Source of the DNA: Candidatus Contubernalis alkaliaceticus
Lineage (GTDB): Bacteria; Bacillota; Dethiobacteria; SKNC01
Length of the DNA stretch: 24,000 nucleotides
Assembly: GCF_022558445.1 (NCBI RefSeq)
Contig: NZ_CP054699.1
Span: forward strand, 2,154,004 to 2,178,003
Direction: 5' to 3'
This document shows positions 3,670 to 17,633 of the stretch, one piece after another (the first letter of the stretch is position 1; the number at the start of each line of letters is the position of its first letter). Under the pieces are notes generated by a model. That model was not told where the DNA came from. It did no database searches and saw only the letters and a program-made list of their open reading frames with translations. Position numbers and translations under genes: made by a program.

Positions 3670-4269
3670 TCACTTTCTCTTTTTGTTTGATTTATTATTC
3701 CAAGGGATAATTCCCGGAATAAATTGATCCAGGCGAGTTAGAATCAAGCTGATCATAAAAATTATAGAATTTGCTCTTTCCAGGGCAATTATTTTTCCCA
3801 CCGCCTTACCTCCCACCGTCAAGGAAGCGATAAAGCCGGTCATAACCACACTGAACAGCGCTCTGTCAATACCCGGTTGTTCTGACACAAAACGAACCAC
3901 CAGAGCAGCTCCAATTACACCACTGACAATTCCACTAATATCACCTACTACATCGTTACAGAAATTAGCTACCTGATCTGCATTTCTTACCAAATATATG
4001 GCCCTTTTGGCACCAGAAACTTTTTTTGCAGCCTTAGCATGAAAAGGAGTCTCGTCGGCTGCTGTCGCAGCAATTCCAATGGTATCAAATATAATCCCAA
4101 TAATCACAACCAGCAACAAAATTATAAAAGAAATTATTAGTGATTGTATATTTTCTAACAAAAACTCAGAAGCTATACCTATAAGTACTGCTAAAATAAA
4201 AGTCCCTAAAGAAACGACTAAAACCCATTTTAGACGGGGACGCAAAAAATTATAATCATTATCTGACAA
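3670..4269 (-). CDS. oapA: Small polytopic membrane protein, proposed OLE-associated protein A (OapA)
   Basis: 199 aa with at least four hydrophobic helices (WVLVVSLGTFILAVLIGIA; LIISFIILLLVVIIGIIFDTIGIAA; ISGIVSGVIGAALVV; LFSVVMTGFIASLTVGG). TTG start with AAGGGTGA SD. It lies immediately 3' of the ~600-nt non-coding segment and 5' of dxs, which is the position of oapA in OLE loci. No diagnostic OapA residues could be checked from memory. Confidence 0.65.
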   Translation of the reverse strand: MSDNDYNFLRPRLKWVLVVSLGTFILAVLIGIASEFLLENIQSLIISFIILLLVVIIGIIFDTIGIAATAADETPFHAKAAKKVSGAKRAIYLVRNADQVANFCNDVVGDISGIVSGVIGAALVVRFVSEQPGIDRALFSVVMTGFIASLTVGGKAVGKIIALERANSIIFMISLILTRLDQFIPGIIPWNNKSNKKRK

Positions 4270-4284
4270 AAGATCACCCTTTTA

Positions 4285-4892
4285 AACAAAAAAAATAGAC
4301 TTAAGCTTATACAAAGTTATGCGTAGACAGTAGTCCAAAGAGTAAACGTTGCGGCTTAGGTCCAGCAGGTTTTCCCCAGTAATTACCAAATCGTTGCCGT
4401 ATTGGCGGTTACCCTTTAAAATTACTTCTACCGTGTCGCCACCGATAGGACTGGATTGCCACTTAGTCCGCACTTTAATCCCCTTTGGACCTCTCTAGAT
4501 GAGAACAGTCTAGGAGTTTTCCTCAATAATTCACCCTATCCTCTAGCCTCTTTTGCAGGGATGGTTTCGAGAAGGATGATTCTCTCCCTCCATCACCACT
4601 CAAGGCAGGCTACACTGTACACAGCTTTGGACCGCATACAGGTTCTATCCCAACCAGTAATCATTTACTTATTAGGTAATTCACCACCAAATTGGGTCTC
4701 CACGGAACCAGGGTCAACGCCTACATGCCATTGTAGATCGCCCCGATTCCTTAACCCTCAGCACCAACCCCTGACTGGGCGTCAAGAGCCAGCACCAAGA
4801 ACTTCATCGTTGTGCCCTCAGCGGATTTTTAGCCCCGCCTTCAAAGATAGGGGTATTAACTAGAATACTGCACCACCTACGCTTATTTAACT
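4285..4892 (-). ncRNA. ole: Large structured non-coding RNA, best explained as OLE (ornate, large, extremophilic) RNA
   Basis: About 690-bp gap between ispA and the membrane-protein gene with no credible CDS. Sampled 60-nt lines are ~50-60% G+C, versus ~25% in the neighbouring CDS, and the minus strand is G-rich. It has a dedicated sigma-A promoter. Short local stems and long-range complementary 7-8-mers are visible. The ispA-[RNA]-4TM protein-dxs-tlyA-nadK-recN context is the known OLE locus. Ends are approximate: the 5' end is inferred from the promoter, and the 3' end is placed before the downstream SD. Confidence 0.7.
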
Positions 4893-5843: not shown

Positions 5844-5874
5844 AAAAACCTCCATACTTACCGGTAATCAGTTT

Positions 5875-5958
5875 GACAGGGGACAGTGGACAGTAAATAG
5901 TCAAACATCATCGATCTGCCGATATATGTATCTGTCCCCGTGACCAACTGTCCCCTGT
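5875..5958. repeat. Palindromic intergenic repeat (copy 1 of the GACAG/ACAGTTGG family)
   Basis: ACAGGGGACAGT (5876-5887) is perfectly complementary to ACTGTCCCCTGT (5947-5958). An inner GGACAG (5888-5893) is complementary to CTGTCC (5932-5937). It shares the string ATCTGTC..(C)AACTGTCCCCTG with the copy at 14521-14540. Confidence 0.7.
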
Positions 5959-8622: not shown

Positions 8623-9570
8623 TTACTGCAACTTATATAATACATTTCTTATCAAGCCATAATATGAGATTCCTACAGCATTGTCTGAAGATAATTTTGA
8701 ACCGGCGAAATAAAACCGACACTCCGGCAGTCTTATCTCTAACTGCTGTCTGATAAAAACATTAGAACCTACTCCCCCTACTATCATCACCTCTTTTATT
8801 CCCGTTTCCCGTATCCCCTGCTTTAAAACAGCCACCAGAGAATTAATGGCACATATTTCAATTCCTCTGGCCAAATCCCATGGTTCTATGATGCTGCTGC
8901 TCATCAACCTCTCCACATGGGAAAGGGGACCGGAAAAACTGGTCCAGCAGCCCTTTATTGAAACAGGTATAGGAATAGGGTTCCTGCTCTCACGCGCCAG
9001 CTTCTCTAGGGACGGCCCACAGGGAAAGGACAGGCCTAGTTTAACTCCGACCCTGTCAATGAACTGCCCTAAAGGCAGGTCAGAACTTCCTCCTATCATA
9101 TCCAAGGTTAGAGCTTGACTTTCTTTATTAACTTTCATTAATTCCGTGGTGCCCCCGGAAATATGAAGGACTAAAAAATCCGCCGGATGCTCCTGGACAG
9201 AAAATAAGCCTGCCCAGATATGCCCCTCCTGATGGGTGGTGGGATAAAGAGGGACTCCCAGCAGACGGGAAAAACTTAAAGCATAAGATTCCCCCACCTT
9301 AAATACCGGCATATATGAATTCTCAGCCGGCCTGGGTTTTACACTGACCGAAATACAGGAGGTTTTTTTAAAATCAAAATTATTTCCAGCTGTTTCCAAT
9401 AAAAGAGGGACATTCTTCATGTGCTGAAAAACAGCTTTTGACTGTCTTAAACCCTTATCCCCAGGTTTCACCTCCAGCAGTATTCTTTCATCAATTAACA
9501 ACTCCCCGTTATGATTCACAACCGCCAGGGAAGTAGTATATCCGCTGGTATCAAAACCCATAGAGTACAT
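8623..9570 (-). CDS. TsaD/Kae1 (Peptidase_M22, ASKHA fold) family protein, divergent paralog
   Basis: 315 aa. N-terminal GFDTSGYTTSLAVV (compare GIDTSCDET.VA), metal-binding HQEGH (the HxEGH motif of TsaD), ISGGTTEL and C-terminal SSDNAVGISYYG (compare CTDNGAMIA). Confidence 0.6.
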   Translation of the reverse strand: MYSMGFDTSGYTTSLAVVNHNGELLIDERILLEVKPGDKGLRQSKAVFQHMKNVPLLLETAGNNFDFKKTSCISVSVKPRPAENSYMPVFKVGESYALSFSRLLGVPLYPTTHQEGHIWAGLFSVQEHPADFLVLHISGGTTELMKVNKESQALTLDMIGGSSDLPLGQFIDRVGVKLGLSFPCGPSLEKLARESRNPIPIPVSIKGCWTSFSGPLSHVERLMSSSIIEPWDLARGIEICAINSLVAVLKQGIRETGIKEVMIVGGVGSNVFIRQQLEIRLPECRFYFAGSKLSSDNAVGISYYGLIRNVLYKLQ

Positions 9571-13282: not shown

Positions 13283-14608
13283 TCATGTCCGTAACATAAC
13301 AGCTGCATTTCCTGCCCCCATAATTATCACCAGGATGATAAAAAAAATCATACTTACCGCTACAACTGCTGCAAAAATTAAAAGCAGGCTGTTGCCCATG
13401 GTGTTAAGGCAGTCACATAATGAACTATCCCCCAGAGGTTGTATAAGAGCAGAGGAAAACTTATAAATAAATACTATTGATATAATTTTCAAAAGGGGAA
13501 AAACCAGGGACAAAAAAAGGATTATAATTCCCGCCAGGACCAATCCATTTGTTAACAGCAAAGATGCTCCGATTACTGCTTCCAGAGCTTCGGCCACCAT
13601 CCCACCTACCACGGGGATAAAAACTCCTGTAACGAACTTCGCGGTGCGAAGAGTCACTCCGTCGCTTACCGCTCCCGCTACTCCACTAATGGAAAGTATA
13701 CCCACAAAAATAGTTAGAGATAAACCCATAATAAAAATGGCGGCGTCTTTAAATAACTGTCCTAACCTGGATATCTTAAAATTTTCTGAAAAACTATCCA
13801 ATAAAAGCAGCACCGTAGCTAAAAAAATTAAAGGAAAAACCAAATTTTTAACTAAAATCACTATAAAACTTGCAGAAAAAATAATCACCGGCTGAAATAT
13901 AGCAGCAGAACCCAGGCTTCCCAGGGTAGCTAACAAAGTTAGCAGCAGAGGAATGAGAGCCATAATAAAATCTGACATCCTCTCAATTACTGATTGTCCA
14001 ATACTGATGGCCAGGGAAAAACTCTGCAGAGCAATACTCATCAGCAATATAAATATGATTCCCTGAGCTAAACTGCTAAGCTTAGAACTGCTGAATGCCT
14101 GCTGCAGGTTTTTTAGAAGGACTGCAATCACCGCCAGGATTACCAGACGTCCCATAAAATACAAATTGGCCGTTACTTCCTTGAACAAATAACTGCAAAG
14201 ACCCTTAAATATTCCCATCAGGTCCAGCGGGCTTTCTCCTCTTCCCCTTATCCAATCAAAAATATCATTAAACTCCATGTGAGGCAGATAATCATCCATT
14301 TCTCCGGTAATCTCCTGCCAGTACTGCTCAATAATCTTTAAATCCACCACATCTTTTTGGTCTTCCCACAACTCTTCTTCCAAAGGCATGGCAAACAAAA
14401 CTGAAGACTTTAAAAACAAAACTAAAAATATTACCACCGTAGTAAAGGAGACGATTCTTTTTTTAGGCTGACAGTTGGACAATGGATCAGTTTGACAGTT
14501 AGGAACGAACTGATTTTTGTTATCTGTCAACTGTCCCCTGGCCTCCCCAGGTTTTGGTATTACCAAAACTTGCCACCGCACTTCACTGTTTTTTATTAAT
14601 TTATCCAT
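13283..14608 (-). CDS. spoIIIAE: Stage III sporulation protein AE (polytopic membrane protein); 5' end uncertain
   Basis: 441 aa. Strong similarity by eye to B. subtilis SpoIIIAE (GVTLRTAKFVTGVFIPVVGGM, IYKFSSALIQPLG). The ATG at 14608 has an AGGTGA SD 4 nt upstream. The first ~47 codons have no B. subtilis counterpart, and codons ~23-47 are encoded by a repeat element. Confidence 0.88.
   Translation of the reverse strand: MDKLIKNSEVRWQVLVIPKPGEARGQLTDNKNQFVPNCQTDPLSNCQPKKRIVSFTTVVIFLVLFLKSSVLFAMPLEEELWEDQKDVVDLKIIEQYWQEITGEMDDYLPHMEFNDIFDWIRGRGESPLDLMGIFKGLCSYLFKEVTANLYFMGRLVILAVIAVLLKNLQQAFSSSKLSSLAQGIIFILLMSIALQSFSLAISIGQSVIERMSDFIMALIPLLLTLLATLGSLGSAAIFQPVIIFSASFIVILVKNLVFPLIFLATVLLLLDSFSENFKISRLGQLFKDAAIFIMGLSLTIFVGILSISGVAGAVSDGVTLRTAKFVTGVFIPVVGGMVAEALEAVIGASLLLTNGLVLAGIIILFLSLVFPLLKIISIVFIYKFSSALIQPLGDSSLCDCLNTMGNSLLLIFAAVVAVSMIFFIILVIIMGAGNAAVMLRT
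14467..14540. repeat. Palindromic repeat (copy 2, compact) inside the 5' end of the spoIIIAE ORF
   Basis: Nested arms: GACAGTTGGACA (14470-14481) pairs with TGTCAACTGTC (14525-14535), and ATCAGTT (14486-14492) pairs with AACTGAT (14508-14514). It shares GCTGACAGTTGG, CAGTTAGGAACGA and TTATCTGTC.ACTGTCC with the expanded copy at 14635-14815. Confidence 0.7.
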
Positions 14609-14635
14609 GTTCTCACCTGTATTTTTATAATTTAG

Positions 14636-14877
14636 CTGACAGTTGGTCGGTTGGTCGGTTGGTCGGTTGGTCGGTTGGTCAGTTGGATAGTTGGATAGTT
14701 GGATAGTGGGATAGTTGGATAGTGGGATAGTGGGATAGTGGGTCAGTTAGGAACGATCTTTTTTTATTATTTGTCCAACTATCATCTATCCAACTGTTAT
14801 CTGTCCACTGTCCTGTCCAACTGTCATCTTTTGTCTGTTATCTATCTAACTATCCATCTATCCAACTATCCAACTAC
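14636..14877. repeat. Expanded palindromic repeat (copy 3): two opposed arrays of an 8-nt unit filling the spoIIIAD-spoIIIAE spacer
   Basis: Left arm 14645-14748 holds 13 head-to-tail octamers: GGTCGGTT x4, GGTCAGTT, GGATAGTT x2, GGATAGTG, GGATAGTT, GGATAGTG x3, GGTCAGTT. Central A/T-rich segment at ~14749-14772. The right arm (14773-14877) is a degenerate array of the complementary unit (CCAACTAT / CCAACTGT / CCAACTAC). Confidence 0.9.
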
Positions 14878-14884
14878 CCCCCAT

Positions 14885-15271
14885 TCAGGGAATTAAAGAA
14901 ATAATGGTTTCCAGGACTACTACCACCAAAGGTATTGCCAAAAATAATATTATGATTTTCCCTGCAAATTCTATCTTGCTGGCCGTGGTCCCCTCCCCTG
15001 CATCTCGGCAGACCTGGGCTCCAAACTCTGCAATGTATGCAATACCGATTATTTTTAAAAGGGTATTTAAATACAAAAGGTTAATGTCTGCCCTAATGGT
15101 CAATTCTTCTAATATATACAGCACACTGGATATATAGTTCATCATCGATAAAAAGATAATAACCCCTACGGCAATAGATAAAAATATAGCCAGCTCCGGT
15201 TTACTTTCCCTTAAGATTAATATAAAGACGGCGGCTAAAAGGCCAAGAGCTACAACCTGTATAATGGTCAT
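14885..15271 (-). CDS. spoIIIAD: Stage III sporulation protein AD
   Basis: 128 aa. The LLKIIGIAYIAEFGAQVCRDAGEGTTASKIEFAGKIIIL block is near-identical to B. subtilis SpoIIIAD. Confidence 0.93.
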   Translation of the reverse strand: MTIIQVVALGLLAAVFILILRESKPELAIFLSIAVGVIIFLSMMNYISSVLYILEELTIRADINLLYLNTLLKIIGIAYIAEFGAQVCRDAGEGTTASKIEFAGKIIILFLAIPLVVVVLETIISLIP

Positions 15272-16053: not shown

Positions 16054-17025
16054 CTATAATAAAAGGTTTCGAGACTTTTCCTCATCCCAGATCCTTTCTA
16101 CTGTACCTACTCCTTTGGACATTCCCAAAATAATAACTCTTTGAAAAACTTTGCTTTCAAACAACCTTTTTAGCCCGGGCCTTTCTCTATAATCTTTCAT
16201 GCTACTGCCGTGAGCTGTGGTTATTACAGAAACTCCGGCATTCAGAGCTTCTTCCACGGCTGCAGCATCTTCAATTTTACCAATCTCATCGGTGACCAAA
16301 ACCTGAGGAGACATAGACCGTATTAAAATCATCATTCCCTGAACTTTGGGGCAGCCGTCAATAACATCTGTCCTGATTCCAATATCATTCTGTGGAACCC
16401 CTTCATAGCAGGCAGCAATCTCAGAACGCTCATCAACCAGTCCTACTTTAACTCCAGAAAAACCATAAGAATCAACGCCGCCGCTCAAAAGCCTGACCAA
16501 ATCTCTCAGTAAAGTAGTTTTTCCACACTGAGGTGGAGAAACAATCAAAGTACTGTAAACATAACTATTTTTTCCCAGTAAGTAGTGAACCACTTTCTCC
16601 CCTGCACCGATTACCTCCCGGGATATTCTAATATTGACTCCAGAAATATATTTCTGAAGCTTTATCCTGCCATCTACCATTACCGCTTTACCCACCAGTC
16701 CGATGCGATGTCCCCCGGGAACGGTTAAATACCCGTTTCTTAACTCCTCTTCAAAAGCATAAAGAGAATGATTGCTGATAGTCTGCAGCAGCTGTTGTAA
16801 TTCCTCTTTTTTTAACCTGTAAGCATCCTCTTTTCTTTTTACGGCTTCTCCCCGAATATTCAGCATTACATCTCCCTGGGACCAAACCAACATCAGCGGC
16901 CTTTCTTCCCGCAAGCGGATCTCCTGAACTTTATCCAACAATAAGGGGGAGCATCTTGTAATAATTTTTTTAATAATAGGGGGCAACAAAGGCGTGATTT
17001 GTTTCATAATGATTTTTGTAGACAT
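16054..17025 (-). CDS. spoIIIAA: Stage III sporulation protein AA (secretion-type AAA+ ATPase)
   Basis: 323 aa. Walker A SPPQCGKTTLLRDL and Walker B-like QVLVTDEIG. First gene of the eight-gene block. Confidence 0.92.
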   Translation of the reverse strand: MSTKIIMKQITPLLPPIIKKIITRCSPLLLDKVQEIRLREERPLMLVWSQGDVMLNIRGEAVKRKEDAYRLKKEELQQLLQTISNHSLYAFEEELRNGYLTVPGGHRIGLVGKAVMVDGRIKLQKYISGVNIRISREVIGAGEKVVHYLLGKNSYVYSTLIVSPPQCGKTTLLRDLVRLLSGGVDSYGFSGVKVGLVDERSEIAACYEGVPQNDIGIRTDVIDGCPKVQGMMILIRSMSPQVLVTDEIGKIEDAAAVEEALNAGVSVITTAHGSSMKDYRERPGLKRLFESKVFQRVIILGMSKGVGTVERIWDEEKSRNLLL

Positions 17026-17204: not shown

Positions 17205-17633
17205 TTACTCCTGAACTTCCACTTCGTCATCCAAATCTTCTTCCTCCCACAACTCCCCTTGAACAAACACAACTCTGTGACAGTTAGGACAGAGCACTTC
17301 TATATCAGCTTCATCCAAGGTATCACCATCGATGTATACAATTTCATTGCAATCAGGACACTCCAAAGAAAATTCTTCTAAGTCGTCCTCTTCCTCGTCA
17401 TCAAATGGCTCCTCGTAAACGTCGTCTTCTAAATCTGTTAAATCTTGATCAATAGCTTCAACATATTCAAACATTTCATCATAGTCAGCTTGAAGATTAT
17501 CTACCACATCAGTAATCCCTTCCAAAAGAAAGATAATCTGTGAAAACAGTTTTCCCTCCTTTGAATTACTATCCAAATCCAGTCCCTCAGAAAGCCCCTT
17601 TAAGTAAGCTAATTTTCCTCGTAAGTCTTCCAT
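17205..17633 (-). CDS. Highly acidic hypothetical protein with a C-terminal CxxC...CxxC zinc ribbon
   Basis: 142 aa. Long D/E runs (DDEEEDDLEE, EEEDLDDEVEVQE), CPDCNEIVYIDGD...VLCPNCHRVV, and a GGAGG SD. Sits between efp and spoIIIAA. Confidence 0.6.
   Translation of the reverse strand: MEDLRGKLAYLKGLSEGLDLDSNSKEGKLFSQIIFLLEGITDVVDNLQADYDEMFEYVEAIDQDLTDLEDDVYEEPFDDEEEDDLEEFSLECPDCNEIVYIDGDTLDEADIEVLCPNCHRVVFVQGELWEEEDLDDEVEVQE

Follow-up and report, generated by a model that had tools for sequence, protein, structure and literature searches.

The window (the whole stretch of DNA that was analysed, 24 kb in length) carries a spoIIIA operon on its minus strand, in which spoIIIAA, AB, AC, AD, AE, AF and AG were recognized by NCBIfam equivalog models and AH by Pfam. 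The SpoIIIAE protein of the window was 100% identical to WP_241420668.1 of 'Candidatus Contubernalis alkaliaceticus' (Dethiobacteraceae), and the family model spanned only residues 50-433 of the 441-aa open reading frame. A preliminary description of this DNA had reported a spacer of 276 bp between spoIIIAD and spoIIIAE and junctions of 7-19 bp elsewhere in the operon. The length of the AD-AE spacer was confirmed from the AD stop codon to the AE start codon. The short junctions could be verified from AA to AG (19, 16, 18, 13 and 7 bp), but the AG-AH junction measures 47 bp and lies outside the given range. The AD-AE spacer is filled by a palindromic element, called C below. Two related elements were found beyond those described earlier, i.e. 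element B in the 5' end of spoIIIAE and the hairpin element A after folD. The features of the locus are the following.

16054-17025, minus strand: spoIIIAA, NCBIfam equivalog.
14885-15271, minus strand: spoIIIAD, 128 aa, NCBIfam TIGR02849 equivalog (E = 6.5e-36), with its stop codon TGA at 14885-14887.
14634-14880, no strand assigned: element C, the whole palindromic octamer-array element filling the AD-AE spacer, from tandem (TRF) and inverted repeats and from folding.
14773-14877, minus strand: 5' arm of C in the mRNA, degenerate GGATAGTT / GGACAGTT-type units with a sub-period of about 15 nt, from repeat analysis.
14749-14772, minus strand: A/T-rich centre (loop) of C, 24 nt, adjoining the GATCGTTCCTAAC core.
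14645-14748, minus strand: 3' arm of C in the mRNA, 13 phased octamers, CCCACTAT / CCAACTAT units and then four CCAACCGA, from repeat analysis.
14612-14618, minus strand: Shine-Dalgarno sequence AGGTGAG of spoIIIAE, separated from the ATG by 3 nt.
13283-14608, minus strand: spoIIIAE, 441 aa, NCBIfam equivalog, with its ATG at 14606-14608.
14453-14572, minus strand: in-frame insertion of about 120 nt in the SpoIIIAE signal-peptide n-region (codons about 13-52), from DNA and protein alignments against the relatives L130 and L005.
14537-14569, no strand assigned: two small hairpins, CCTGGCCTCCCCAGG and GTTTTGGTATTACCAAAAC, which arrived with the B insertion and are terminator-like on the plus strand only.
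14466-14538, minus strand: element B, built of GGGGACAGTTG, loop and CCAACTGTCAGCC, a shorter paralogue of C located in the spoIIIAE reading frame.
5867-5958, minus strand: element A, a GACAG-unit hairpin and looser relative of B and C, directly after the folD terminator.

Directly upstream of spoIIIAA, at the position of yqhV in B. subtilis, a 142-aa ORF (17205-17633, minus strand) was noticed, which is kept in all relatives and gave only a weak HNH-endonuclease match in Pfam. Elsewhere in the window a full-length OLE (Ornate Large Extremophilic) RNA was detected at 4311-4892 on the minus strand (498.9 bits, E = 8e-144). It lies between ispA and a downstream ORF for a 199-aa membrane protein (3670-4269, minus strand), which has a weak CNNM match and stands at the position of OapA, upstream of dxs. 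The OLE gap of about 690 bp is conserved in all relatives.

The repeat analysis of element C reproduced exactly the 13 perfectly phased octamers that had been reported at 14645-14748. Their order is GGTCGGTT x4, GGTCAGTT, GGATAGTT x2, GGATAGTG, GGATAGTT, GGATAGTG x3 and GGTCAGTT, and TRF assigned the arrays of C a period of 8 with 94-97% matches. The degenerate reverse-complement array at 14773-14877 and the A/T-rich centre between both arrays were likewise recovered. The motif RYAGTTGG occurs 15 times in the 24-kb window against 2.9 expected, a count reached in none of 100 shuffles. The GATCGTTCCTAAC core beside the loop is conserved between C and B and across species. Of the proposed inverted repeat with arms of about 100 bp, the two opposed arms of about 105 nt do exist, but their end-to-end complementarity is limited to 66 of 115 positions (57%), with a best stretch of 38 nt at 89%.

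Folding of the mRNA-sense strand of C gave -84.8 kcal/mol (z = -6.7), which supports the earlier prediction of a long imperfect hairpin in the polycistronic mRNA. The minimum free energy structure contains 84 pairs, and its longest uninterrupted helix of 21 bp is part of a near-continuous outer stem of about 34 bp; four to five of the outer CCAACCGA units stay unpaired. The opposite strand folded at -106.6 kcal/mol (z = -6.9). Strand asymmetry was considered as a clue to the functional strand and rejected, the G/T-rich strand folding only slightly better with similar z-scores. A comparison of C with Rfam 15 returned only chance matches to miRNA precursors (19.3 and 15.5 bits against gathering scores of 73 and 64). 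Scanning of C revealed no terminator-like site on either strand, its 3' flank being A-rich and not U-rich, and no sigma-70 promoter-like site; a check by eye found no fit to a sigmaE-type promoter.

Element B shares its ends and loop core with C. In the sister species (contig L001) the two elements are 87.5% identical over 56 nt. The termini of B, GGGGACAGTTG / CAACTGTCAGCC, form terminal inverted repeats, and similar ends are found in C. The insertion that contains B precedes a KKR / hydrophobic core / VLFA-MPLEEE segment, and this segment aligns with the short presequences of the relatives. B is equally long in the window and L001, and the length of the whole insertion is kept between the window and the sister species, with frame 0 as the only frame open in both. 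The 23 substitutions between the two insertions are distributed 7/8/8 over the three codon positions, whereas the 600 nt of coding sequence that follow show 11/4/51. These counts indicate that selection acts on the frame of the B stretch and not on the encoded peptide. The inner structure of B, as seen by folding, is not conserved between species. B is probably translated within the 441-aa SpoIIIAE, the PGAP-annotated product, and the repeat-encoded peptide would be discarded if signal peptidase cuts at the presumed site after VLFA. A HMMER search with this peptide against 1.8 billion representatives, i.e. cluster representatives that may lack an insertion, found two unrelated repetitive proteins only.

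The Shine-Dalgarno sequence of spoIIIAE is located 16-27 nt past the end of C, and its context together with the ATG, RCRGGTGAGRMYATG, is conserved in DNA alignments with relatives that carry no repeat at all, down to 76% SpoIIIAE identity. This argues that the ATG at 14606-14608 is the ancestral start codon and that about 120 nt were inserted in frame behind it. A downstream GTG or TTG was also considered as the true start of spoIIIAE. It was rejected, as such a start has no Shine-Dalgarno sequence and would remove the KKR n-region, and the upstream signals appear ancestral. The n-region of the SpoIIIAE signal peptide seems to be a permissive hotspot for insertions.

Two further observations were made in this region. 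One of the small hairpins in the B-bearing insertion, CCTGGCCTCCCCAGG, is followed by TTTTGGTATT and resembles a terminator at 14537-14551 on the plus strand, antisense to spoIIIAE. In the relative L132 (positions 8858-9000; 76% SpoIIIAE identity) the AE presequence has an extension of its own of about 30 aa at the same place, which is unrelated and bounded by GAAGACAG and CTGTCTTC.

Element A has AGGGGACAGTTG and the GACAG unit in common with B, and its likeness to B and C is confined to a 12-nt seed and the type of unit. GGGGACAG occurs five times in the window against 0.57 expected, four of the five being located in A and B. At the orthologous site A is absent from the sister species (L133) and from four more distant relatives (L137, L132, L177 and L178), and the alignment of the window with L133 breaks at 5864/5958, i.e. 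at A. The known copies are the three in the 24-kb window (A, B and C). No further copy was found in about 229 kb of related loci and window, of which about 22 kb belong to the sister species, and two scans of viral contigs with the end and loop motifs of the element returned chance single matches only. No transposase or RAYT gene was seen in the 24-kb window. No flanking direct repeat that could represent a target-site duplication was evident next to the elements, the empty sites of the relatives being too diverged to define exact boundaries. Presence and absence among relatives suggest that the element may be mobile.

Repeats of another kind were seen in two other places. In the Dethiobacter MAG (L007 7400-7600, also L008 at about 7467) an element of about 105 bp is present as a tandem duplicate just upstream of spoIIIAA; it begins with GGGACAGGGGGACAGGTGATTTGTCCCAC, continues with G+C-rich hairpins and is a different repeat which also contains GGGGACAG. 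The dxs-tlyA spacer of relatives with about 80% identity (L177 9935-9995; L137 at about 10949) contains GGGGACAG(Y)(W)TACTTAATT, with a 30-bp tandem duplicate in L177, and the dxs-tlyA junction of the window is only 10 bp long (1743-1752).

The AD-AE junction was compared across the relatives.

L001-L003, sister species, SpoIIIAE 91% and DNA 87-88% identical: B and C at the same sites.
L130, SpoIIIAE 82% identical: junction of 47 bp, repeat-free, short presequence.
L005, SpoIIIAE 76% identical: junction of 77 bp, repeat-free.
L132, SpoIIIAE 76% identical: junction of about 86 bp, repeat-free, with its own AE N-terminal extension.
L006, SpoIIIAE 63% identical: junction of 16 bp, repeat-free.
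L007, Dethiobacter MAG, SpoIIIAE about 47% identical: junction of 5 bp, repeat-free.

B and C are thus polymorphic for presence and absence at orthologous sites, being absent from L130, L005, L132, L006 and L007. This distribution indicates that both were gained after the split from relatives with about 80% DNA identity, and that A was added later, in the window species only. In the three sister-species contigs C has a shorter and variable form compared with the window. Their flanks are 99.5-99.65% identical, yet their versions of C are very different, with a 5' arm of 34 nt or about 72 nt and a 3' arm built of CCAACTGA or CCAACCGA units. The contigs L002 (5190-5211) and L003 (4350-4372), which are independent short-read assemblies, end inside the 3' arm of C. 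The suggestion that octamer number is a slipped-strand variable agrees well with such differences between nearly identical contigs, two of which end within the array. The unit change from CAGTTGG/CCAACTG in L001 to CGGTTGG/CCAACCG in L002 and L003 looks compensatory. A change by one 8-nt unit shifts the frame in coding sequence, and the comparisons show that C changes on a strain-level time scale and that B, in coding sequence, is frozen in length.

The best reading of C is that of a palindromic repeat which is specific to this lineage, prone to slippage and of the STRR / GGGNATC / REP-MITE kind. We consider it reasonably probable that it is a tolerated, self-propagating or self-expanding repeat, and that its transcribed hairpin is at most modulatory. 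C would have entered the spoIIIAD-spoIIIAE junction in the Contubernalis lineage together with its paralogous copy B, which landed in frame in the signal-peptide n-region of SpoIIIAE, and the looser relative A would have been gained later behind folD. The arms of C would evolve by gain and loss of units. The two arms are made of one unit that runs in opposite directions. A hairpin is therefore still possible after slippage of any kind, which explains how the structure can be kept without selection. C is presumably co-transcribed with the operon and would form a long imperfect hairpin upstream of an independent and ancestral Shine-Dalgarno sequence and ATG, where it would be tolerated and not required; an effect on segmental mRNA stability or cleavage by RNase III would be incidental and modulatory. 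The host organism is described as spore-forming, which would mean that the spoIIIA operon works with these insertions.

Several proposals of the preliminary description find no support in these results. A dedicated regulatory role is not supported in view of the repeat-free junctions of L130 (47 bp), L005 (77 bp) and L006 (16 bp), whose SpoIIIAE identities are 82, 76 and 63%, and of the Dethiobacter MAG (5 bp). Short junctions in close relatives are what the preliminary description itself had named as speaking for selfish or neutral DNA. The spoIIIAE Shine-Dalgarno sequence and ATG predate the repeat and their context is conserved without it, and translational uncoupling between AD and AE therefore did not arrive with the element. 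The element is also not peculiar to the intergenic spacer, a paralogue lying within the spoIIIAE frame and a looser relative behind folD.

The main alternative holds that C is a selected intercistronic RNA hairpin, at which the transcript would be cut by RNase III or otherwise processed, or which would block 3' exonucleases, and that it sets different levels for AA-AD and AE-AH, as REP/BIME and Correia elements do in other bacteria. The hairpins of REP elements protect the mRNA that lies upstream of them, those of Correia elements are cleaved by RNase III, and a 21-bp helix in a stem of about 34 bp is long enough for this enzyme. The strong and significant fold on the mRNA strand, the long outer stem and the apparently compensatory unit switch between strains are all consistent with such a role. 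B and C moreover persist at the same sites in two species that differ by about 12% in DNA, with all versions still capable of forming a hairpin, a point against the reading as a tolerated repeat, since the same pattern would be expected from a selected RNA structure. Hairpins of short tandem repeats in the cyanobacterial hupS-hupL spacer have been proposed to stabilise transcripts or to couple translation (PMC2670836). We nevertheless regard selection for the hairpin as rather unlikely, because close relatives without C keep the same Shine-Dalgarno sequence and ATG, and because size and sequence of C differ wildly among 99.6%-identical strains, which is not expected of a tuned structure. The two strands fold about equally, the opposite strand as well as or better than the mRNA strand, and the two species differ in the inner structure of B; together this marks the palindrome as a property of the DNA and not of a tuned RNA. 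The location of a paralogue in a coding region and of a relative after an unrelated terminator also does not fit this explanation. A local origin, in which a simple sequence expanded at the junction and was copied about 170 nt downstream, with A as an unrelated look-alike, was judged improbable. Clear homology exists only between B and C, A being matched through its 12-nt seed, and the lack of other copies in the sequence searched, of a visible transposase or target duplication and of the B peptide in any other of the 1.8 billion representatives could all be explained in this way. Against it, B and C are discrete units of about 75-100 nt with matching ends and loop and unrelated flanks, for which insertion fits better than a regional duplication. 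The excess of GGGGACAG falls mostly in A and B, and the gain of three elements over a short evolutionary period within 24 kb points to an active family.

Two remaining explanations concern the DNA itself and its assembly. Protein-binding sites, e.g. a SpoIIID roadblock, or a G-quadruplex of the GG strand could impede RNA polymerase between AD and AE. SpoIIID has the degenerate consensus WWRRACAR-Y, to which units of the form TTGGACARNY fit, and the template strand has GG tracts at 2-nt spacing. In B. subtilis SpoIIID represses spoIIIA, with a ChIP signal near spoIIIAF (PMC517825), and G-rich heptamer repeats gave G4 structures in vitro (PMC4692102). The 8-bp spacing of the units is out of step with the helical repeat. 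The arrays of C were rejected as SpoIIID sites, as C contains one perfect match and the window, with 27 matches to this degenerate consensus against 20.7 expected, shows no enrichment. The units of C carry GG tracts only, and not the tracts of at least three G of a canonical G-quadruplex, which would allow no more than weak two-tetrad structures. C is also absent in relatives and unstable in copy number. A function of this type is very improbable. For a mis-assembly of repetitive reads, which might have created the array or its unit count, it can be argued that two contigs assembled from short reads of the sister species stop within C, so that arrays of this kind do trouble assemblers. The source genome is one circular contig from 170x Nanopore and Illumina data (PMC10608574), and in the sister species the element is present at this site in independent assemblies. 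The closed hybrid genome therefore makes an artefact hardly credible.

Opposed 8-nt arrays were also encountered outside this lineage. Metagenomes were scanned with CCAACYRNCCAACYRNCCAACYR, a permissive pattern for which the matches listed were mostly CCAA microsatellites and eukaryotic DNA, and none of the matches listed was a contig of the window lineage. Among the 32 non-microsatellite matches listed, at least 8 unrelated, mostly high-GC bacterial contigs carry such arrays, at the following positions.

L100: 8648-8749 and 3441-3514
L071: 6638-6704
L078: 1270-1361
L074: 62-149
L030: 559-656
L048: about 520-603
L090: 1425-1575
L010: 1814-1991

These arrays form strong intergenic hairpins (-37 to -99 kcal/mol), which often occupy the gap from a stop codon to the following ATG. 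The unit in L100 is identical to the GGTCGGTT of the window, and the second opposed 8-nt pair of that contig has a different unit. This suggests that the architecture recurs widely. That opposed 8-nt array hairpins with a GGTTGG/CCAACC-type core represent a widespread, undescribed class of bacterial intercistronic elements is a speculative idea with little probability. If such a class existed, its upkeep might come from the hairpin or the G-rich strand acting in mRNA processing, segmental stability or polymerase pausing, and the Contubernalis case would be one in which it settled in an essential sporulation operon and in a signal peptide.

With C as a tolerated repeat, the odd 276-bp gap in a tightly packed and conserved sporulation operon can be explained without new regulation. 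The locus would add an example from the Dethiobacteria to a repeat type known until now chiefly from cyanobacteria and xanthomonads. The locus also offers a natural experiment, in which the same element appears frozen in length and free in sequence in its presumably translated copy (B) and hypervariable in the untranslated one (C), and it presents the n-region of the SpoIIIAE signal peptide as permissive for insertions. Arrays of this type interrupt assemblies made from short reads and lead to inflated ORF predictions, and unit counts from short reads are unreliable. If the hairpin affects mRNA processing, the locus could serve as a simple model of selfish repeats that rewire expression ratios within an operon.

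REP/BIME, REPIN and MITE-type elements (such as Correia/NEMIS) are likewise small non-coding palindromes which come and go between close relatives, in intercistronic or post-terminator locations where they are co-transcribed as hairpins. REPINs consist of two inverted repeats that make one long hairpin (PMC3116915). In C, two inverted and conserved REPs of about 20-40 nt were not found, conservation being restricted to the ends GACAGTTG and CAACTGTC and the loop core. Unlike REP, REPIN and MITE elements, C has no unit of fixed sequence, its arms being variable tandem arrays, and for a C-type element no target-site duplication was seen and no RAYT or transposase is known. Element B recalls the Rickettsia palindromic elements (RPE), which Ogata and co-workers are said to have described in 2000 as inserted in frame in protein genes. 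B is likewise palindromic, in frame in a gene of an essential pathway, apparently translated, and its peptide seems to be tolerated. It differs as the single known coding insertion of its kind, located in the n-region of a signal peptide and thus probably removed by cleavage, and has no sequence relationship with RPE.

The cyanobacterial units STRR2 (TTGGTCA) and STRR3 (CAACAGT) are only loosely resembled by the units of the window. Like C, the cyanobacterial STRRs (short tandemly repeated repetitive sequences) are runs of short units that fold into a hairpin in a spacer within an operon (PMC2670836), but the STRRs are heptamers with other unit sequences and occur in cyanobacteria only. The TAACTGA heptamers of Beggiatoaceae, Cyanobacteria and Bacteroidetes also form short-unit arrays a few nt upstream of start codons, and their unit is similar to CCAACTGA / TAACTGAC (PMC4679880). 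Unlike C, these repeats are heptameric and almost always direct, being inverted in 1 of 170 sets, and they often replace a recognisable Shine-Dalgarno sequence, whereas a strong one follows C (PMC4679880).

The GGGNATC repeats known from Xanthomonas and Nostoc (Rehm et al. 2015, PMC4692102), one of the dispersed simple-sequence repeat families with units of 6-9 nt and inverted pairs, are similar to C in more respects. In Xanthomonas, GGGAATC arrays occupy about 185 sites, with 70-75 convergent inverted pairs per genome that are capable of forming stem-loops; they are located preferentially between aligned ORFs and are transcribed, and their length varies between species while the array type is kept (PMC4692102). 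As in C, short units are arranged head to tail, often in two convergent stem-loop-forming arrays, and lie between co-oriented ORFs including positions inside operons (pecE-pecF in their case); transcription is reported for the GGGNATC arrays, and unit number differs between related genomes with the type, single or inverted pair, being retained (PMC4692102). C differs in its unit of 8 instead of 7 nt, in its GG instead of GGG tracts, in its host, a spore-former of the Dethiobacteria, and in the conserved loop core enclosed by its arms. By this comparison, the dispersed heptamer SSR families would be the closest description of C.
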